Shown piece by piece: positions 3,616 through 39,543 of a DNA stretch of 39,543 bases. How positions within the stretch are numbered: the stretch's first letter is position 1; each line of letters starts with the position of its first letter. The notes under the pieces were generated by a model. It saw only the letters and a list, made by a program, of their open reading frames with translations, did no database searches and was not told where the DNA came from. The stretch comes from a virus (lineage: Duplodnaviria; Heunggongvirae; Uroviricota; Caudoviricetes), in IMG/VR virus record IMGVR_UViG_2541047868_000004, one strand, 5' to 3'. Both the position numbers and the translations under genes were made by a program.

Positions 3616-3867
3616 ATGGGAAGAGATGACCCGCAATTTAATCTGCGGCTACCTTACGAATTAAAGGAAAAACTAAAACAGCGAGCCAAATCCAATGGCC
3701 GCTCTCTTAATTCAGAATTAGTTCAGATAGTGACTGATGCTGTATCAAAGCCATCCAAAATTTCAGGCTATCGAGACGATGCGGAACGCATCGCTGATGA
3801 GCAGTCCGAACTTGTTAAGAAGATGGTGTTTGATACGCTGAAGGATTTGTACAAAAAACCCACCTGA
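3616..3867 (+). CDS. mnt: Mnt repressor (ribbon-helix-helix, Arc/MetJ family)
   Basis: 83 aa; strong similarity to P22 Mnt including C-terminal ...DAERIADEQSELVKKMVFDTLKDLYKK. Confidence 0.85.
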   Translation: MGRDDPQFNLRLPYELKEKLKQRAKSNGRSLNSELVQIVTDAVSKPSKISGYRDDAERIADEQSELVKKMVFDTLKDLYKKPT

Positions 3868-4303: not shown

Positions 4304-4437
4304 ATTACTTTCCGTTTTGTTAGAATCAGAAAGATCTTAATAATAAAAAGTATTTTCGTGAAGATATTGTCGATTGAGTTAATAACTCATTTACACCCAA
4401 CAGTGCCATGATGGCAAAGATAAGGAGAGTTAATCAT

Positions 4438-4962
4438 ATGAAAAAATCACTGTTAATTATCCCGCTTCTGCTGGCAGGGTGTGCAAAGGTTAGCGACTAT
4501 CAGGCAAGTTGCGAACAACGCTATCCAAAGCTTAGCGATATGGCTAATTGCCTTGATGCTAGCGTGAAGAGCGACTCACGCATGGCATCAGCACCAACAC
4601 CTAAGTTATATGTCCTTGCTGCGAAGATGCTCGGGCAAGGTGTCGATGATGGCAAGATAAGTGACGCGCAGGCAAGACTTGAGCTTCAGAATCTTTATGT
4701 TCAATTACAAAGCCAAGAACAAGCCCAACAAATAGCACAAAGCCAAGCATTCCAGCAGGCTTTATTGAATTATCAGGCTGTAAACACAATGCAAGCTATC
4801 GAGCAAAAAGCGCGCCAGCCTGTTATAACTCAACCTTACCCAACACGCGTTGACACTTCACAAACTGCAATTCAGGGTTTGGAAATACAGTCACATGCAA
4901 CAGTAGCAGTAACATCAGATAACAATCAGCAAAGGTATCGCCTATGCAGAGGGATACGATAA
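4438..4962 (+). CDS. Putative lipoprotein with Gln-rich central region (moron)
   Basis: ORF 4408..4962; likely start at ATG 4438 (MKKSLLIIPLLLAGC) preceded by AAGGAG; lipobox LLAGC. Confidence 0.55.
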   Translation: MKKSLLIIPLLLAGCAKVSDYQASCEQRYPKLSDMANCLDASVKSDSRMASAPTPKLYVLAAKMLGQGVDDGKISDAQARLELQNLYVQLQSQEQAQQIAQSQAFQQALLNYQAVNTMQAIEQKARQPVITQPYPTRVDTSQTAIQGLEIQSHATVAVTSDNNQQRYRLCRGIR

Positions 4963-26011: not shown

Positions 26012-26281
26012 TCATTGCTTCATCTCCCTTTCCATTTCATCAATGTCAACATCATCAGGAAGATGGGAACAATACGCTGCTATACCATGATGATTTATCT
26101 CATACCCTTTGAACGTTACCATCTGGTGCGTAATCTCAACTTCGTTCAGGAATCCTTCATCGCATAACTGCCTGGCTATTTTCGATTTGGTCTGGATTAT
26201 TGGTAGTGCCTGTTCTTTCAAAGCGCATGATATTTGTGCATCCCATGCCTTTTCGAGAATGGCTAATTGTTTTTTATTCAT
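26012..26281 (-). CDS. Hypothetical protein between helicase and ninB
   Basis: 89-aa ORF with ATGA coupling to helicase stop. Confidence 0.45.
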   Translation of the reverse strand: MNKKQLAILEKAWDAQISCALKEQALPIIQTKSKIARQLCDEGFLNEVEITHQMVTFKGYEINHHGIAAYCSHLPDDVDIDEMEREMKQ

Positions 26282-27732
26282 CAGAATCCTCCTTTCTTCT
26301 TGGACTGCGGTTCCTCGCGTTCACGGCGGCGCATTTCAGCAGACTGTTGGTCTGTGTCATAAATAGCGCCATTTGCCTGAATGCAATACACCGTGCCGGT
26401 ATTGCCATGACGATTGAGACGAAGGATTAGTTCGGTTTCACCAGGAGGAACACTGTCATCAAAAGCACCTTCACGATGGATCCCCACCCAATAATCGCAA
26501 TCCTGTTCAATCTGCCCTGTATCTCGTGAGTCACTTGGTAATGGGCGTTTATTGGTTCGGCTTTCCAGTGCGCGGTTAAGCTGTGTCAGAAGCACAACAA
26601 CGCAATCAAGCTCTTTGGCAAGGTTCTTCAGTCCTTTGGTGATCATGCCGTAAGCAAGGTCGTTGCGATCGGCCTTCTCAGCAGTCATTAGTGTCAGGTA
26701 ATCGACCAGAATCATGCCAACACATCCTTTTTCTCGCTTGATTCGACGGCTTTCGCTGACGATTTGAGCCAGAGATAATCCCGGCGTGTCGTCGATGTAA
26801 AGCATGTCGATTTCACTCAAGCGATTGGCTGTTTCGATCGCCCTGTTGAAGTCACCATCGTAATCACCCTGATAGCCGTCATCAGCGTCATTTGTCGCCG
26901 GAAGGTAAAAAATATTCGGGTTAACACCAGACTTCTGCCCTACCAGTTTTTCCAGTATCTGGTCACCTGGCATTTCAAGGCTGAACATCAGAGCAGGCTT
27001 TTTCTCATGCACTGCACAGTTGATTGCCATCTGGCTGTATAGCGTCGTTTTCCCCATCTTAGGGCGAGCGCCAATGACAAACAGAGAGCCTTTCACCAGA
27101 CCTTTCGGTGACAGCATCCTGTCCAGCGATGGGATCCCCGTGCTCATTCCTCGTTGTTCGCCTGACGGGTCAAATCGCTTCTCAAGGTCGCTAACCCAGT
27201 CTTCCATGACCTCACCAAATGAGCGAAGGCCGCGACGCGATCCGGTTTTTGCATGGTCTGTCAGTTGCGTGAAAATCGCCTGAATAGCTTCGTACTTCTG
27301 CGTTGCAGTCATTCCGTTGCGGGAATAGAGCAATTCCGTCGCTTCAGTCATGCGGTTGATGGCGTAGCGTTCCATTGCGGTTTCACGAACCTGCATTGCA
27401 TAGGCAACGATGTTTGCTGCGCTTGGCGTGTTCTTTGCGATCTCAGCGATATAAGCAAAACCGCCAACAGACGCCGTTAACGATTTACGCTCCAGTTCAT
27501 CGAAAAGCGTCAGGCCATCTACTGGCTTTTGTTCCCGGTGCATTCTGGTTATTTCTTCGAAAAGGATTTTGTGTGGTCGGCTGTAAAATGAATCAGGCTT
27601 CAGCATCGCCAGAACTTTCCGGACGCGCTCACTGCTGTCATCATCCAGAAGCAATCCACCAATCACCGCCTGCTCTGCCTCGATGCTATGGGGCGGCGCA
27701 TAAAAATTATCGGTCATCGTGTTCACCCTCAC
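26281..27732 (-). CDS. Replicative DNA helicase (DnaB family, P22 gp12-like)
   Basis: 483-aa ORF; N-terminal SIEAEQAVIGG, Walker A GARPKMGKTT; start may be the internal ATG at 27717. Confidence 0.9.
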   Translation of the reverse strand: MRVNTMTDNFYAPPHSIEAEQAVIGGLLLDDDSSERVRKVLAMLKPDSFYSRPHKILFEEITRMHREQKPVDGLTLFDELERKSLTASVGGFAYIAEIAKNTPSAANIVAYAMQVRETAMERYAINRMTEATELLYSRNGMTATQKYEAIQAIFTQLTDHAKTGSRRGLRSFGEVMEDWVSDLEKRFDPSGEQRGMSTGIPSLDRMLSPKGLVKGSLFVIGARPKMGKTTLYSQMAINCAVHEKKPALMFSLEMPGDQILEKLVGQKSGVNPNIFYLPATNDADDGYQGDYDGDFNRAIETANRLSEIDMLYIDDTPGLSLAQIVSESRRIKREKGCVGMILVDYLTLMTAEKADRNDLAYGMITKGLKNLAKELDCVVVLLTQLNRALESRTNKRPLPSDSRDTGQIEQDCDYWVGIHREGAFDDSVPPGETELILRLNRHGNTGTVYCIQANGAIYDTDQQSAEMRRREREEPQSKKKGGF

Positions 27733-28606
27733 GAACTTTCAGGTAGGTATTGTCGTTAAGCAGGAAATCAAATCCCTTTTTGTGCCAGACGGTTCCGCGT
27801 TGATGGTTTGGGCGCTCTTCGAACATCCATCGGCAATTTTCGCCAACGTAGCTCAAATAATTTCTCCAGTCCTGCATCGTGAACCCATGCCCGTCAAGCT
27901 GGCGGGTTATCACTCCGGCTTTGCGCCAGAACGTTCGGATCTGGTTTTTACGCTTGTCATTCAGTGCGCGGATTCTTGGCGCTTCAGGAAGGATTTCGTG
28001 GTAAGCATCGACAACATCCTGACAGCTAACGGGAGGTTTTTTCTTGTCAGACTTTTTGTCTGCTGTGGCACTCTCTAATACGTCAGTATTAGAGATAATA
28101 TTATTATATTCTTTATCTGTGGTAATTTGCTGGTAATCTGCTGGTACAGTATTGCTTGCAGGCATTGGTATTGCTGGCTTTGAGGTGGTAATTTGCTGGT
28201 AATCTGCTGGTACAAAATTTGACTGATAATCGTCATATTTCTCTACCGAGAAAACTGAGAATTTACCGTGTGAAACCCAGTCAATCATGCCGAGTTTTTT
28301 GAACTTTCTAAGCAGGTACTGAACGCGATCTGGTTTGAGTCCTGTTTCAAACGCCAGAGAGTTTCTACCGCCAAGTAGCTTCCCTCTGCCTACCAGAATT
28401 TCTCCTGCGTCAGTCATTACATACTCAGGCGTATGCTTTGCTTTGAGGATTAAGTGAACCCACAGATGCGCTGCTTCTGCGTCCTTGTAAAACGGCACAT
28501 CCATAATTTTACGGTGCAGCAAGGCATACCCCTTACCGCTGCTTTGATGCGGTTGTTGTAGCCTTCTGGCCTCTCTGGCTTCGGCTAGATTAGATATGTT
28601 ACTCAT
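27707..28606 (-). CDS. Replication initiator (O-like / P22 gp18-like) containing the origin
   Basis: 299 aa; iterons lie inside the coding region and encode repeated PADYQQITT; directly upstream of helicase. Confidence 0.7.
28118..28213. repeat. Origin-of-replication iterons with adjacent AT-rich segment
   Basis: Two 30-bp direct repeats GTGGTAATTTGCTGGTAATCTGCTGGTACA (28118..28147, 28184..28213), each with tandem TGCTGGTAAT-like units; AT-rich stretch at ~28090..28115. Confidence 0.7.
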
Positions 28607-28777: not shown

Positions 28778-29071
28778 TCAGAATTCCATCTGGATTTGTT
28801 CAGAACGCTCGGTTGCCGCCGGGCGTTTTTTATTGGTGAGAATCGAAGCAACTTGTCGTGCCAATCGAGCCATATCGTCGTCAACGACACCCCATTCAAG
28901 AACAGCAAGCAGCATTGAGAACTTTGGAATCCAGTCCCTCTTCCACCTGCTGATCTGCGACTTATCAACTCCCACAGCTTCCGCTGTCTTCTCAGTTCCA
29001 AGCATTGCGATTTTGTTAAGCAACGCACTCTCGATTCGTAGAGCCTCGTTGCGTTTGTTTGCACGAACCAT
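28778..29071 (-). CDS. cII: Transcriptional activator CII (lambda-type)
   Basis: 97 aa from ATG 29071: [24 protein letters not shown]…, essentially lambda CII; ORF-track entry 28778..29131 includes a non-coding extension. Confidence 0.9.
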
Positions 29072-29190: not shown

Positions 29191-29421
29191 TTAAGCAGCC
29201 ATTAATTCAGGCCAGATGCTTTCCCAATCAACCGGATGAAGGTCTTTGCGAGTCACTTCACCATTGCTGAACTTCTCAATCAGAACACAAAGTGCTGCGC
29301 CCAATTCATGATTACGGCTAAGTGCTTTCCTCAAATAGCCGATAGAAGTTCCGCACTTGGTGGCAAATTCTCTCTGCTCTTCCAGTGAAAGGGAGTTCAG
29401 ATACAAGCGGAGTTCTTCCAT
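29191..29421 (-). CDS. cro: Cro-like repressor (non-lambda immunity type)
   Basis: 76 aa; transcribed divergently from cI across the operator region; HTH-like segment TKCGTSIGYLRKALS; call is positional. Confidence 0.6.
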   Translation of the reverse strand: MEELRLYLNSLSLEEQREFATKCGTSIGYLRKALSRNHELGAALCVLIEKFSNGEVTRKDLHPVDWESIWPELMAA

Positions 29422-29455: not shown

Positions 29456-29511
29456 TTTACCTGCAGGTAAAAAACAAATCAATACCCACAGGTTATTTAC
29501 CGATAGGTAAT
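29456..29511. promoter_or_regulatory. OR operators / divergent pRM-pR region
   Basis: Perfect palindrome TTTACCTGCAGGTAAA (29456..29471) and related ATTTACCGATAGGTAAT (29495..29511) between cro and cI. Confidence 0.65.
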
Positions 29512-29529
29512 CAAAGATAGAATTAAATC

Positions 29530-30216
29530 ATGGATAAATACGAACAAAGACGACTAAGGCTGATAGAGATAAGAGACCGATTCTGTAATGGAAAGGCCTC
29601 AGAGTTGGCTCGTCGAATAGAAAGGGAACCATCATACGTTTCCAGAATGCTGTATCCGGAAGGAAAAAGCGGAAAAAAACGCATTGCTGACGATATGATG
29701 GAACTAATTGAAAAATCTTTTAATCTCCCACGCGGATGGATGGACATGCTTGCAGATAGCAAAGTTGGATCTGCAGACCATCTTGAGTTTGCGGGTAACG
29801 TTCGTGCGGGTTTTGTTCCGGTAATTGGTGAAGCCGTTTTGGGAGTTGATGGCTCAGTGGATATGATTGAATTCAGATCCGGTTGGTTAAGCATCTACAG
29901 TGGCGATAAAGATGCTTACGGTCTGAAGGTTAAGGGTGACAGCATGTGGCCAAGGATTCAGTCAGGAGAATATGTTGTTATTGAACCAAATACGCCAGTA
30001 CATCCAGGTGATGAAGTCTTTGTAAGGACCAAAGATGGTCATAACATGATAAAGATCATGAACAAAACAAGAGACGGAGACTATCAGTTTAGTAGTATAA
30101 ACAGCGATCACCGTCCAATCACTCTTCCTGTTGAAGAAGTTGATAAAATGCATTTTGTTTCAGCTATTGTGAAACACACTAGGTACGTAGACCAGGACGA
30201 TCTGCCAAAATTTTGA
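29530..30216 (+). CDS. cI: CI-type prophage repressor with C-terminal S24 (LexA-like) autopeptidase domain
   Basis: 228 aa; N-terminal DNA-binding region; C-terminal GDSMWP…K motifs of S24 peptidases. Confidence 0.8.
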   Translation: MDKYEQRRLRLIEIRDRFCNGKASELARRIEREPSYVSRMLYPEGKSGKKRIADDMMELIEKSFNLPRGWMDMLADSKVGSADHLEFAGNVRAGFVPVIGEAVLGVDGSVDMIEFRSGWLSIYSGDKDAYGLKVKGDSMWPRIQSGEYVVIEPNTPVHPGDEVFVRTKDGHNMIKIMNKTRDGDYQFSSINSDHRPITLPVEEVDKMHFVSAIVKHTRYVDQDDLPKF

Positions 30217-30230
30217 GGATAAAGCAGCAA

Positions 30231-30527
30231 ATGTTTATACCAGGTATAGTGGTCGCTGTTGTAATCATCTGCTTCATATGGGCAAAGTTATCTCCTGTAA
30301 GCTCTAAGCATACAGCTGAACTCATGAAGAAGAAGCATCTTATACATGAGGCAGAAACGATAATTAAGAAGTTCAAAGGCATGTCATATGACGACATGTC
30401 ATCAGATCAGATTGCTATGTATAAATGCGCCATTGAGCGTCTTGACTACTTAAACGGACTCAAACCCAAACACACCCCGGTAGAATCAAAATTGCCGCAA
30501 TGGCCAAGCAATCCAAATAGCTTCTGA
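30231..30527 (+). CDS. Small single-pass membrane protein co-transcribed with cI (moron)
   Basis: ATG 30231 with SD GAGGA; N-terminal TMD (FIPGIVVAVVIICFIW); followed by a strong terminator; ORF track starts at a TTG (30213). Confidence 0.55.
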   Translation: MFIPGIVVAVVIICFIWAKLSPVSSKHTAELMKKKHLIHEAETIIKKFKGMSYDDMSSDQIAMYKCAIERLDYLNGLKPKHTPVESKLPQWPSNPNSF

Positions 30528-30537
30528 CATCTCCTTT

Positions 30538-30560
30538 CAGCCCGCAAAGCGGGCTTTTTT
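30538..30560 (+). terminator. Intrinsic terminator after the cI operon
   Basis: AGCCCGCAAAGCGGGCT followed by TTTTTT. Confidence 0.8.
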
Positions 30561-30580
30561 ATATCAATCCAAAAAATTAA

Positions 30581-30661
30581 TTACCTGAAAATTCAAACAG
30601 GTAAACTCTCACACCAATTTTATTTACCTGCAGGTATAGACAACAGTTTTACCTGTAGGTA
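30581..30661. promoter_or_regulatory. OL operators / pL region
   Basis: Operator-like repeats TTTACCTGCAGGTA (30623..30636) and TTTACCTGTAGGTA (30648..30661), same consensus as OR; TTACCTG…CAGGTAA at 30581..30607. Confidence 0.6.
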
Positions 30662-30705
30662 TATTTTAAGCCATCAGCAGGACGCACTAACCACCATGAA
30701 GGTGA

Positions 30706-30736
30706 TGCTCTTAAAAATTAAGCCCTGAAGAAGGGC
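30706..30736 (+). promoter_or_regulatory. nutL (boxA-like TGCTCTTAA, boxB GCCCTGAAGAAGGGC)
   Basis: Matches lambda nutL as recalled; upstream of N. Confidence 0.8.
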
Positions 30737-30893: not shown

Positions 30894-31791
<898 letters not shown>

Positions 31792-35962: not shown

Positions 35963-36444
35963 GCAACATCGACACACTGGCGCTGCGTGAGGCGGCAGAA
36001 GCAATAAAAGTCGTGGCAACGCCGCAAAAATTGCTTGCGTTTCGTATGAAGGTCACACCGCAGGTTGTGCTGGCGCTACTGGATGAAATTAAGCGGCTGG
36101 AGGACACAAATATTGATGCAATGTGCCGAATTGCAGAGCTTGAGACTAATCTCGCGGCGCTGTCGGCGGAGAGTGAGCTGGCTCGTAAAGCAGTTCAGGC
36201 ATTTTGCGATGTTGTTGGCGACAGCACCGAGGTTATCTGTGAGGAGATTGGGAGAGATGGCGTTCTGGTTATTTTGGAGGCCATGAAGGCAACAGGAAAT
36301 ATGCCAGCCACTGATGCTTTCCTGTCTGAAGTGCGGGCACAGGGGGTAGAGATGATGCGAGAACACCCATCAATCAAACTTTGCTCTTTGACGCACATAT
36401 GTGACGAGTTAGCCGCCCAGCTTCGCAAAGGAGGCAGCCAGTGA
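35959..36444 (+). CDS. Hypothetical early protein, paralog B (shared C-terminal module)
   Basis: ORF 35935..36444; probable start ATG 35959 with GAGGAGG upstream; C-terminus matches paralog A. Confidence 0.5.
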   Translation: MSNIDTLALREAAEAIKVVATPQKLLAFRMKVTPQVVLALLDEIKRLEDTNIDAMCRIAELETNLAALSAESELARKAVQAFCDVVGDSTEVICEEIGRDGVLVILEAMKATGNMPATDAFLSEVRAQGVEMMREHPSIKLCSLTHICDELAAQLRKGGSQ

Positions 36445-37160
36445 GCAAGATTGACTATCAGGTACTGCGTGAAAAGGCAGAGAAAGCAACGTGTGGTGTG
36501 TGGTCGCTCGAATATGGAGAGGGCCGATTTGATGGTGATGATGCACTAATTCATCGCGAGGCTGCTGGATATATTCCAATTTGCAGAATTGAAGGAGCGC
36601 ATCCAGAAAGCGGTTTCGATGAAGATTTCCAAATGGAACAGCAGGCCAATGCTGAATTCATCGCCGCAGCCAATCCGGCTACCGTCTTGGCGCTGCTGGG
36701 CGAGCTGGAAACAGCAAAAAAGCGCATAGCAGAACTGGAAGCCGAACCTGTAAGCCAAGCTTACAACTTGCCAGAATTAATCGAAGGCATGGAAGTTTCC
36801 ATTGATGTAAGTACTTGTGATGCTGATTTAGGTAATCGCTATTTCGGCACCGTCACCGAGGCGTTAGAACTTGATACTGCCAAGAATGGTTACATCCTCC
36901 TGGTTCAGGACGCAGAGCCAAACTTCGATGTAAATGGCAACTCTCCGGTAACTCCGGATGGTTGGATAAGCTGTAGTGATCGAATGCCGGATACCAAAAC
37001 AGCCGTTCTTGTTGCCGTGGAGTTTGACAGGAAAGGTGACTGGCGAATGAAATGGGCGACTTACATCCCGGGTCATCCTGACGCTAATGATGGGTGGATA
37101 ATTCCTGGTGCGTCGTGGAAACCGTCACACTGGATGCCGCTACCAGAGCCTCCACTTTGA
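36441..37160 (+). CDS. Hypothetical early protein with DUF551-like C-terminus
   Basis: 239 aa; GTG start with AAGGAGG upstream; C-terminal …WKPSHWMPLPEPPL resembles DUF551 endings. Confidence 0.45.
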   Translation: MSKIDYQVLREKAEKATCGVWSLEYGEGRFDGDDALIHREAAGYIPICRIEGAHPESGFDEDFQMEQQANAEFIAAANPATVLALLGELETAKKRIAELEAEPVSQAYNLPELIEGMEVSIDVSTCDADLGNRYFGTVTEALELDTAKNGYILLVQDAEPNFDVNGNSPVTPDGWISCSDRMPDTKTAVLVAVEFDRKGDWRMKWATYIPGHPDANDGWIIPGASWKPSHWMPLPEPPL

Positions 37161-37256
37161 AAGCGAAGCTTATACATATCTTTTACATCAGCAATCTATT
37201 GTTAATCTCCAATCAATGTTACGTTGTCATCTCACTCATGCTTTGGAGGTAGTGAT

Positions 37257-37436
37257 ATGTCTTGTCCAAAATGCGGTTCTGGAAATATTGCAAAAGAAAA
37301 AACAATGCGTGGATGGTCTGATGATTATGTGTGCTGCGATTGCGGATACAACTACTCTAAAGACGCATTTGGAGAGCGTGGTAAAAACGAGTTTGTCAAA
37401 ATTAATAAAGAACGCGAAGGCAACGAAAAAAGCTAA
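37257..37436 (+). CDS. Small zinc-ribbon protein
   Basis: 59 aa from ATG 37257 with GGAGG upstream; CPKCGSG…CCDCGYN. Confidence 0.45.
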   Translation: MSCPKCGSGNIAKEKTMRGWSDDYVCCDCGYNYSKDAFGERGKNEFVKINKEREGNEKS

Positions 37437-37500
37437 TTTATTTATTCATATATGAAAACAATGTAACCAATATTCGAATTGAAGAACTGAAAGAACACCA

Positions 37501-37525
37501 AGCCGCCTGATGGCGGTTTTTTATT
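37501..37525 (+). terminator. Intrinsic terminator before xis
   Basis: GCCGCCTGATGGCGG followed by TTTTTTATT. Confidence 0.75.
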
Positions 37526-37567
37526 GCCTGATTTGCAGGTTCGATTCCCTATTCGGAGATAGCACTC

Positions 37568-37768
37568 ATGCAACACGAACTACAACCTGATTCACTGGTT
37601 GATTTGAAATTCATCATGGCCGATACTGGCTTCGGTAAAACCTTCATCTACGACCGGATTAAGTCCGGCGACCTGCCAAAAGCCAAAGTTATCCACGGGC
37701 GAGCAAGATGGTTATATCGTGACCATTGTGAATTCAAAAATAAGCTCTTAAGCCGCGCCAATGGGTAA
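37568..37768 (+). CDS. xis: Excisionase / AlpA-family DNA-binding protein
   Basis: 66 aa; AlpA-like HTH region (…FIMADTGFGKTFIYDRIKSGDLPKAKVIHGRARW…); last phage gene before att core. Confidence 0.65.
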   Translation: MQHELQPDSLVDLKFIMADTGFGKTFIYDRIKSGDLPKAKVIHGRARWLYRDHCEFKNKLLSRANG

Positions 37769-37840
37769 AATAGCGGGTAAAATATTTTTCACATCTAAAA
37801 AACACCATTCCAATCAATCCCCTGCCGCGTCAAGTAGATG

Positions 37841-37856
37841 TCTGCAGGGGACACCA
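37841..37856 (+). other. Prophage attachment-site core (attR): duplicated 3' end of tRNA-Arg (argW)
   Basis: TCTGCAGGGGACACCA matches the 3' end of argW (…TTCGATTCCTGCAGGGGACACCA) as recalled from memory; located 73 bp after xis. Confidence 0.6.
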
Positions 37857-38295
37857 GATACCCTTCAAACGATATCTACCTTCACCCCGTAAAAGATAAG
37901 TTTGGCAGCACATTTGCCCTATCTACTCATTTTTCCTGCAACAGGTTGAAATCTCAACACGGTCAGAAAACGCTGATGACTAAACAGCCCTGGGCTGGGC
38001 GATGTAACCATCACACACAATCCTGATCGCGAAATATGGCGTGACTTGATACTTCACTCCACAATGCTTTCCTTGATGAATTCGCAGGCCCGTGATACAC
38101 GGGACAGGTCGCTGAATTACGACAATGCCCTGGAAATCAGCGAGCCGTGTATCCGGAGTACATTTGAGCGACTGTACCAGAACATGAATGAGGCGTTTGG
38201 ATTAGGCGATTATTAGCAGGGCTAAGCATTTTGGTATTATTATTTTCCGGTTGAGGGATATAGAGCTATCGACAACAACCGGAAAAAGTTTACGT

Positions 38296-39543
38296 TTATA
38301 TTGCTGAAGGTACTGGCGTTTCCATCACTATTTGCTCACGTTTTTTACTCAGGAAGAAAATGCCAAATAGCAACATCAGGCAGACAATACCCGAAATTGC
38401 GAAAAAAACCGTCTGGTAGCCTGCGTGGTCAAAGAGTATCCCAGTCGGCGTTGAAAGCAGCACAATCCCCAACGAACTGGCAATTTGAAAACCAATCAGA
38501 AAGATCGTCGACGACAGGCGCTTATCAAAATTTGCCACGCTGTATTTGAAGACGGATATGACACAAAGTGGAACCTCAATGGCATGTAACAGCTTCACTA
38601 ATGAAATAATCCAGGGGTTAACGAATAGCGCGCAGGAAAGGATACGCAACGCCATAATCACAACACCGATAAGTAATGCATTTTTTGGCCCTACCCGATT
38701 CACAAAGAAAGGAATAATCGCCATGCACAGCGCTTCGAGTACCACCTGGAATGAGTTGAGATAACCATACAGGCGCGTTCCTACATCGTGGGATTCGAAT
38801 AAACCTGCATAAAAGACAGGAAAGAGTTGTTGATCAAAAATGTTATAGAAAGACCACGTCCCCACAATAAATATGACGAAAACCCAGAAGTTTCGATCCT
38901 TGAAAACTGCGATAAAATCCTCTTTTTTTACCCCTCCCACATCCGCCGCTACGCACTGGTGTTCCTGCTCTTTAAAACGCATGTTGATCATCATAAATAC
39001 AGCGCCAAATAGAGAGACCAACCAGAAGTTGATATGGGGACTGATACTAAAAAATATGCCAGCAAAGAATGCGCCAATAGCATAGCCAAAAGATCCCCAG
39101 GCGCGCGCTGTTCCATATTCGAAATGAAAATTTCGCGCCATTTTTTCGGTGAAGCTGTCAAGCAAACCGCATCCCGCCAGATACCCCAGACCAAAAAAGA
39201 GCGCCCCCAGAATTAAACCTACAGAAAAATTGCTTTGCAGTAACGGTTCATAAACGTAAATCATAAACGGTCCGGTCAAGACCAAGATGAAACTCATACA
39301 CCAGATGAGCGGTTTCTTCAGACCGAGTTTATCCTGAACGATGCCGTAGAACATCATAAATAGAATGCTGGTAAACTGGTTGACCGAATAAAGTGTACCT
39401 AATTCCGTCCCTGTCAACCCTAGATGTCCTTTCAGCCAAATAGCGTATAATGACCACCACAGCGACCAGGAAATAAAAAAGAGAAATGAGTAACTGGATG
39501 CAAAACGATAGTACGCATTTCTGAATGGAATATTCAGTGCCAT
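38296..39543 (-). CDS. cscB: LacY-family oligosaccharide:H+ symporter (sucrose permease CscB-like); host gene
   Basis: 415 aa; 12-TM MFS transporter; sequence recalled as essentially CscB; gene starts exactly at window end. Confidence 0.75.
   Translation of the reverse strand: MALNIPFRNAYYRFASSYSFLFFISWSLWWSLYAIWLKGHLGLTGTELGTLYSVNQFTSILFMMFYGIVQDKLGLKKPLIWCMSFILVLTGPFMIYVYEPLLQSNFSVGLILGALFFGLGYLAGCGLLDSFTEKMARNFHFEYGTARAWGSFGYAIGAFFAGIFFSISPHINFWLVSLFGAVFMMINMRFKEQEHQCVAADVGGVKKEDFIAVFKDRNFWVFVIFIVGTWSFYNIFDQQLFPVFYAGLFESHDVGTRLYGYLNSFQVVLEALCMAIIPFFVNRVGPKNALLIGVVIMALRILSCALFVNPWIISLVKLLHAIEVPLCVISVFKYSVANFDKRLSSTIFLIGFQIASSLGIVLLSTPTGILFDHAGYQTVFFAISGIVCLMLLFGIFFLSKKREQIVMETPVPSAI

Follow-up and report, generated by a model that had tools for sequence, protein, structure and literature searches.

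What kind of gene lies directly behind the cI repressor gene of a temperate phage, and what would its product do in the lysogen? The question is raised here by a P22-like podoviral prophage in which a small open reading frame, called ORF98, follows cI. The whole stretch of DNA that was analysed, 39,543 nucleotides long, is called the window. The best reading of ORF98, with a probability of roughly 40%, is that of a lysogen-expressed, stand-alone superinfection-exclusion factor at the inner membrane. The case for it is made from position and evolutionary pattern, not from homology. The surprise is modest, since a specialist would expect an accessory gene downstream of cI. The new points are that the family is widespread and overlooked, that its members are found either in the cI slot or in the SieA slot, that its domain is predicted to be cytoplasmic, and that it evolves faster than the genes of the switch.

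The immunity region of the window is reversed relative to the usual lambda map. It holds the following features.

26281-27732, minus strand: DnaB-type replication gene.
27707-28606, minus strand: O-like gene.
29071 (ATG) to 28778-28780 (stop codon), minus strand: lambda cII.
29191..29421, minus strand: cro-like gene, divergent from cI, matching phrog_35 (transcriptional repressor, 7.5e-16) and 100% identical to mEp043 Cro.
29458..29509: OR region, with three 12-bp operators TACCnnnnGGTA at 29458, 29483 and 29498, from a pattern search.
29496..29523, plus strand: putative PRM-like promoter TTTACC-16 nt-TAGAAT, from a promoter scan.
29530..30216, plus strand: cI repressor, a LexA-like S24 peptidase (Pfam Peptidase_S24, 1.4e-17), with 98% amino acid identity to mEp043 cI.
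30215..30219, plus strand: GAGGA Shine-Dalgarno sequence of ORF98, overlapping the cI stop codon TGA (30214-30216).
30231..30527, plus strand: ORF98, 98 codons, with ATG at 30231 and TGA at 30525-30527.
30539..30561, plus strand: intrinsic terminator AGCCCGC-AAA-GCGGGCT followed by T6; stem at 30539-30555, 7 bp, 6 of them G-C.
30581..30665, plus strand: OL/PL region, from scans and a pattern search.
30625-30636 and 30650-30661: OL operators, TACCTGCAGGTA at 30625 and TACCTGTAGGTA at 30650.
30637-30665: PL-like promoter TAGACA-17-TATATT, overlapping the OL operators.
30722-30736, plus strand: nutL boxB hairpin, at the start of the PL operon.
30894-31217, plus strand: lambda-type N gene, from ORF translation.

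ORF98 sits within the OR-to-OL unit as an accessory gene of that unit would: it shares the strand of cI, falls in the interval from cI to OL/PL, shows no promoter of its own in the scan, and is followed by a terminator ahead of OL. A sequence-only reading of the locus had described a 98-residue frame after cI, with a Shine-Dalgarno sequence upstream and a terminator at its end, in the position that rexAB occupies in lambda. All of these elements were recovered. The GAGGA motif stands 11 nt before the ATG, a scan returned the hairpin and T6 tract, and the position between cI and OL/PL is indeed that of rexAB.

The start codon can be placed by comparison. Homologs of ORF98 all begin with M/V-[FYW]-I-[PS]. 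In the cassette of locus L008 an in-frame stop codon lies directly upstream of the homolog's start, and the copies in P22-like phages have a perfect TAAGGAGGT Shine-Dalgarno sequence 5 nt before the start codon. These three observations indicate that the 98-residue start is correct. A 104-residue version read from an upstream TTG (GenBank PV340537) was rejected, because the comparative evidence favours the shorter form. The L008 and L046 cassettes, too, have Shine-Dalgarno-like motifs equivalent to GAGGA in front of the homolog's start. The start codon itself alternates between ATG and GTG at one position (30231 in the window), swapping across independent lineages (L001, L016, L045, L046 and most P22-like copies).

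Transcription of ORF98 would begin ahead of cI. In the PRM-like promoter the -10 element stops 7 nt short of the cI ATG, which would leave the cI mRNA with little or no leader, as in lambda. The middle operator appears to be centred near -42 of the PRM-like start, which would be the lambda geometry for activation by repressor. Operator sites form clusters confined to OR and OL, and they are kept in three diverged cassette lineages. Only 14 nt separate the cI stop codon from the start of ORF98, and the promoter scan gave no promoter-like site in this gap. A precedent comes from BTP1, a P22-like prophage: its cI and bstA genes form an operon that is read from the start site of cI and strongly expressed during lysogeny (PMC7067206). 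Given the short gap, the lack of an internal promoter, the PRM-like promoter and this precedent, it can soundly be inferred that ORF98 is transcribed with cI from the maintenance promoter in the lysogen. Its product would be made continuously there, and the shared transcript would halt at the terminator ahead of OL.

The terminator folds at -12.6 kcal/mol (z = -2.2 against shuffled sequences), and the order cI, ORF98, terminator, OL is repeated in mEp043 and in six E. coli prophages. The GC-rich terminator 3' of the small gene occurs in the cassette of the window and mEp043 only; between the small gene and OL, no similar hairpin is seen in cassettes of the L008 and L046 types. An inverted repeat, TTACCTG-N10-CAGGTAA (30581-30604), lies just upstream of the OL operators; all three diverged cassette lineages keep it, and it could be an additional, third binding site of the repressor with odd half-site spacing, or else serve another protein. 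The boxB hairpin and the N protein were recognised by eye, and we take both to be lambda sequences; N is annotated at the equivalent position in mEp043 and in E. coli genomes. Rfam gave no RNA family anywhere in the window. The small RNA svsR, which is reported from inside the cI gene of another prophage, was set aside as belonging to a different locus.

The cassette can be found in more than one kind of phage. The window itself is a P22-like podoviral prophage, with a P22-type coat protein, portal, gp7, gp20 and tailspike head-binding domain. Its gp16 homolog, which has no Pfam match, is assigned by position and by tblastn to the gene-16 proteins of P22-like loci. From cro to OL, the window is 97% identical to mEp043, a lambda-like siphovirus. 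Strain K56-43-un also has this cassette, with a 100% identical ORF98; there it is part of a P22-like prophage of different assembly, at the bio/ybhC site. Since it occurs both in P22-like podoviruses and in the siphovirus mEp043, the immunity cassette moves as a unit between virion types; for the same reason, its carriers do not reveal the target of ORF98.

ORF98 belongs to a protein family, phrog_10450, which is listed with 'unknown function'. The match covers residues 1-98 of 98 (E = 1e-55). Four distant homologs (P0022, P0010, P0008 and P0006) fall into this family too, at 1e-24 to 5e-38, and there are weak PHROG matches besides, to phrog_1077 (E = 0.003) and phrog_10423 (E = 0.02). Relatives of 97-114 residues at 31-43% identity came from an exhaustive HMMER search, which covered 1.84 billion representative proteins, and a profile search gave 21 clusters. 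The exact ORF98 protein is present on 339 contigs and the variant of phage N7 on about 1,000. Hosts include Escherichia, Salmonella, Citrobacter and Cronobacter, and the family's carriers are all temperate phages of Enterobacteriaceae. Every database name for its members is 'hypothetical protein', and the literature search found no paper that mentions the family. ORF98 has no match in Pfam, NCBIfam, PADLOC or the PDB, or by fold comparison. In PADLOC-DB v2 there was likewise no match for P0010, P0008 or the L008 homolog, and P0022 gave chance-level matches only (E = 0.025-0.037). In sum, phrog_10450 is a widespread, overlooked and uncharacterised family of a familiar kind of gene.

Could ORF98 nevertheless be no functional gene, but a fortuitous or decaying frame within a spacer that carries the terminator of the immunity operon? 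Annotation gives this view some support. The RefSeq pipeline PGAP leaves ORF98 unannotated in most genomes, including all five prophages that were fetched individually (L012-L016), and names it in only a few, such as K56-43-un; in phage mEp043 it is deposited as hypothetical protein mEp043_049. Likewise, the substitutions inside the mEp043 clade are few and mostly non-synonymous. Against this, comparing the window allele with the mEp043 clade gives a dN/dS of 0.10-0.16, where cI in the same comparison has 0.11-0.14, and the value is about 0.1 on the longer branch. ORF98 is present in 52 of 5,426 complete E. coli genomes; it is intact in 52 of the 52 that have this cI, and 52 match the whole cI-to-OL stretch in one piece. 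Homologs at 29-45% identity agree in length, in where they start, in having an N-terminal membrane helix and in the C-terminal motif, and they are intact, with invariant residues and a Shine-Dalgarno sequence, in two unrelated contexts. The invariant residues of the family are L37, I38, E40, A41, M56, C66, A67 and L71, while S52, R70, L74, H81, W91 and P92 are nearly so. Together with the full-length PHROG match, the comparative data already contradict a non-functional frame, which is very improbable. By this evidence, ORF98 is a real, selected protein-coding gene.

The product had been described as a single-pass membrane protein, and this holds. ORF98 has one hydrophobic segment only, at about residues 3-20, and the mean Kyte-Doolittle value of residues 1-19 is 2.4. 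A membrane topology prediction, which the sequence-only reading had suggested, gave a single helix oriented N-out/C-in by charge distribution. In eight of eight representatives of the family there is no Lys or Arg before the helix and there are 2-7 in the following 20 residues. The signal-peptidase AxA motif is not conserved across the family. Because Lys and Arg follow the helix only and no cleavage site is conserved, the positive-inside rule predicts an uncleaved N-out/C-in anchor with a domain of about 75 residues in the cytoplasm. A cleaved signal peptide of Sec type, with export to the periplasm, was rejected from the same eight representatives, which lack a positive n-region as well as a conserved AxA.

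An AlphaFold2 model, made from an alignment of 13 sequences, has a mean pLDDT of 77, with values of 84-89 over residues 31-70. It consists of a long helix at residues 5-47, a second helix at 58-76, and then a tail with the conserved WP. With the charge distribution, a cytoplasmic helical hairpin is predicted. The conserved motifs of the predicted hairpin region are LIxEA, SW.EM, Y.CAIERL..L and WP.

Where else does the family occur? It is too divergent for a single alignment, and related loci were gathered from subgroup alignments. Contexts were classified by tblastn with marker proteins in 36 fetched loci and the window, and there are two only. In the one, the gene stands directly 3' of a single cI lineage, 83-100% identical to the cI of the window. 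This is the case in the window, mEp043, E. coli prophages, L008-L010 and L044-L046; the gene is alone there, and the three cassette lineages concerned share the same operators and PL. The interval between cI and N is a hot spot for exclusion and defence cargo, examples being rexAB, bstA, the 933W kinase and hex (PMC8585504, PMC3564112). A comparison of the cargo downstream of cI in related prophages, also suggested by the sequence-only reading, found the slot to be variable and the ORF98 family to be tied, within this slot, to one cI lineage. The variability follows from cassettes with a 933W-type cI (L048/L049), which carry different cargo in this slot: in O157:H7 SS17 a DUF3024 protein, a hypothetical protein and a Ser/Thr kinase, and in an EPEC strain with a nearly identical cI a single hypothetical protein of 256 residues.

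The other context is formed by 30 P22-like loci, including coliphage N7. Here the gene is on the mnt strand, between mnt and the ejection gene 16, and in 29 of the 30 it is convergent with gene 16 at about 30 nt from its 3' end. This interval is the sieA slot in P22. Neither these loci nor the window gave a tblastn match to P22 SieA or contain the SieA motif, and the neighbours scanned in L005, L006 and L007 have no match to the SieA PHROG. Several of the loci have no mnt match, and the upstream neighbours fall into at least six arrangements. A conserved partner gene, sought in the loci with the gene in the SieA slot, was not found, as such variation of the neighbours implies. In both contexts the gene would be driven by the promoter of a repressor gene, or by one next to it, active in the lysogen.

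A leader of about 45 nt, TCATGGTATCCTGCnCAAAACTAAGGAGGTTGGTGTG, is shared upstream of the gene by L005-L007, L019, L028, L029, L031, L032, L036 and L037. It holds a strong Shine-Dalgarno sequence and a TGGTATCCT element, which could be an extended -10 promoter element. Further upstream the loci are unrelated in sequence, so the mobile unit apparently carries a ribosome-binding site of its own and perhaps an extended -10 promoter. Variants of the family and variants of gp16 occur in pairs; this was rejected as functional evidence, the simplest cause being physical linkage over 30 nt.

The family diverges faster than its surroundings. Between cassettes in which cI is 83-85% and Cro 82-89% identical, its members are only 35-42% identical, and inside the mEp043 clade ORF98 gains 1-4 non-synonymous changes against 0-1 in cI. 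This faster divergence could reflect weaker constraint instead of an arms race.

Among known systems, rexAB of lambda, an abortive-infection pair cotranscribed from PRM, matches the position of ORF98. Both stand on the strand of cI, in the interval from cI to OL/PL, and are followed by a terminator ahead of OL. Like ORF98, the pair includes an inner-membrane protein, and lysogens make it, as they probably make ORF98. rexAB differs in comprising two genes, with RexA as a sensor, whereas ORF98 is one gene with no second ORF before OL. RexB has 144 residues and four helices, against 98 residues and one helix in ORF98. Scans of ORF98 against Pfam, PHROG and PADLOC returned no family of RexB type or otherwise annotated for exclusion. 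The earlier claim that the two proteins are unrelated agrees with the single helix, the missing rexA partner and this lack of a family match.

SieA of P22 is a protein of the inner membrane and prevents the injection of DNA (PMC10883804). ORF98 resembles it in being small, stand-alone and located at the inner membrane, and thirty loci carry distant homologs in the SieA slot. SieA proteins of types A-C have three or four transmembrane helices and about 160-200 residues, in contrast to one helix and 98 residues, and SieA lies between genes 16 and 9, whereas ORF98 of the window is at cI and only its thirty distant homologs are in the 16-to-9 interval. P22 SieA maps to phrog_7745, not phrog_10450. 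ORF98 was rejected as a SieA homolog, as the hhalign probability is 0.9% and the motif FxRYPxEAxxFNK is absent; among all loci and the window, this motif was found in P22 itself only.

BstA of BTP1 is again the product of the gene that directly follows cI in a P22-like prophage; this gene uses the cI promoter and has its own terminator. The protein is soluble, binds DNA and is much larger, and it comes with an embedded anti-BstA DNA element. The contrast with ORF98 is one of descriptions (larger, soluble).

Hex of phage 434 is another small protein encoded directly 3' of cI. It is cotranscribed from PRM, excludes P22 and protects the repressor from RecA (PMC3564112). ORF98 was rejected as a Hex homolog (hhalign probability 0.1%). 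With a corrected start (L047, 1413-1817, minus strand, lambda imm434), Hex begins with MIRIAALLSILLTTSANSEC, which is signal-peptide-like, whereas ORF98 is predicted to have an uncleaved N-out/C-in anchor. An exported Hex would be hard to reconcile with the published protection of repressor in the cytoplasm.

Finally, there are small membrane-anchored proteins by which a resident phage blocks genome entry without a partner. HK97 gp15 and the lactococcal Sie2009 are of this kind, and so is T4 Imm. ORF98, too, is small and membrane-anchored, and all three lie in genomic slots unlike its own. ORF98 has no match among the PHROG families annotated as superinfection exclusion. More generally, neither homology nor fold similarity to known exclusion or defence proteins was found.

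How would an exclusion factor of this kind work? The N-terminal helix would insert ORF98 in the inner membrane, with one or two N-terminal residues facing outward and the predicted helical-hairpin domain on the cytoplasmic face. Acting alone, the protein would hinder the delivery of genomes by incoming temperate phages at the inner membrane, as P22 SieA does. The most obvious targets would be the conduits formed by P22-like ejection proteins. A cytoplasm-facing domain is unusual among the injection blockers of Gram-positive phages. On the other hand, the conserved SieA motif is also predicted to be cytoplasmic (PMC10883804). Superinfection exclusion fits better than the alternatives because ORF98 is a small membrane protein without a partner, because its family occupies both slots, because it diverges fast around a conserved core, and because it takes the SieA position in phages where no SieA was detected. 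The sequence-only reading had named superinfection exclusion or abortive infection as the usual functions of such proteins; the distant homologs in the sieA slot, the faster divergence and the lack of a partner gene strengthen this candidate function. Against it stands that the slot between cI and N also houses genes with other roles, such as Hex, which stabilises the repressor.

Those other roles have to be weighed. One is that of an abortive-infection effector, silent in the lysogen and triggered by infection, which would depolarise or permeabilise the inner membrane and kill the cell before phage release, much as RexB or SieB but with no separate sensor. The slot is shared with rexAB and bstA, both of which are abortive-infection systems, and a fast-diverging membrane protein that is probably made in the lysogen would suit this role. 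Yet a single membrane helix with a small soluble domain does not, and a sensor partner is conserved in neither context. ORF98 has no similarity to RexB, SieB or any PADLOC model, and a pore-former made constitutively from PRM would need a safety mechanism, of which no trace was seen. Abortive infection is thus unlikely. Another role is that of a modulator of lysogeny, adjusting how stable the prophage is or how lysis and lysogeny are chosen: ORF98 might shield its cI lineage from RecA-stimulated cleavage, for which Hex is a precedent at the same position, or act on membrane-bound FtsH and so on the turnover of CII and CIII. Its strict link to one cI lineage in the cI context (52 of 52 genomes and three cassette lineages) would be expected of such a modulator, and the predicted domain is on the cytoplasmic face, where FtsH works. 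This role is weakened by two facts. Thirty members are unlinked to any cI, adjoining gene 16 in the late region, where neighbours vary and several loci have no mnt match; and a regulator locked to its repressor is expected to co-evolve with it, which the much lower identity of ORF98 than of cI between cassettes contradicts. With the lack of similarity to Hex, modulation of lysogeny appears quite improbable.

A different possibility is that ORF98 is directed at the host and not at phages at all, as a lysogenic-conversion factor for envelope stress, transport, colonisation or antibiotic tolerance. Lysogen-expressed morons include such genes, bstA was first linked to virulence phenotypes (PMC7067206), and nothing in the sequence of ORF98 indicates a phage target. 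However, anti-phage cargo is what the cI-to-N slot and the SieA slot are both best known for, the family keeps to temperate phages of Enterobacteriaceae, and a fixed place beside the genes for ejection proteins in 29 loci is hard to explain for a gene aimed only at the host. A host-directed function is therefore judged improbable, and exclusion of other phages at the inner membrane is preferred.

A more specific form of this preferred role can be proposed for the family as a whole, though it is tentative and on balance doubtful. In this form, phrog_10450 would be an unrecognised family of stand-alone, single-pass exclusion proteins that act from the cytoplasmic face on the gp7/gp20/gp16 conduit of P22 type, and possibly on other conduits. 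It would stand in for SieA, and it would move between the cI/PRM and mnt/immI operons of temperate enterobacterial phages.

Prophage genes that are made in the lysogen set which other phages can infect a strain, which has consequences for phage therapy, phage typing and the spread of toxin phages. With 98 residues and no need for a partner, ORF98 would be a simple system for a block to DNA entry at the inner membrane. That one family turns up in the cI slot as well as in the SieA slot also offers a practical guide to further exclusion genes.

Some observations concern the remainder of the window. The integrase is at the tailspike end (1-1158), while a TorI-like excisionase, Eag and Ea22 are at the far end (36400-39543), adjoined by a host gene for an 'oligosaccharide MFS transporter' of the LacY family at 38296-39543. 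Mis-assembly as the cause of the odd integrase position was rejected, as this is a normal layout, which we take to be of the KplE1/HK620 type, with attP between xis and int. Three further genes are of interest beside ORF98.

3616-3867: mnt homolog.
4408-4962, plus strand: lipoprotein-like ORF, likely start 4438, matching phrog_6067 (unknown function).
31210-31713, minus strand: ORF of 167 residues, matching phrog_1244 (unknown function).

The ORF at 4408-4962 occupies the window's own SieA slot, the 16-to-9 interval, downstream of the mnt homolog and convergent with gene 16. It has no Pfam or NCBIfam match. Read from Met11 it begins MKKSLLIIPLLLAGC, a lipoprotein signal with a lipobox, and it is, beside ORF98, another candidate for an envelope or exclusion protein expressed in the lysogen. 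The ORF at 31210-31713 lies antisense to the PL operon; its overlap with the 3' end of N is 8 nt, and its place and orientation are those of lambda sieB. Near its C-terminus it has a CxxC...CxxC arrangement.
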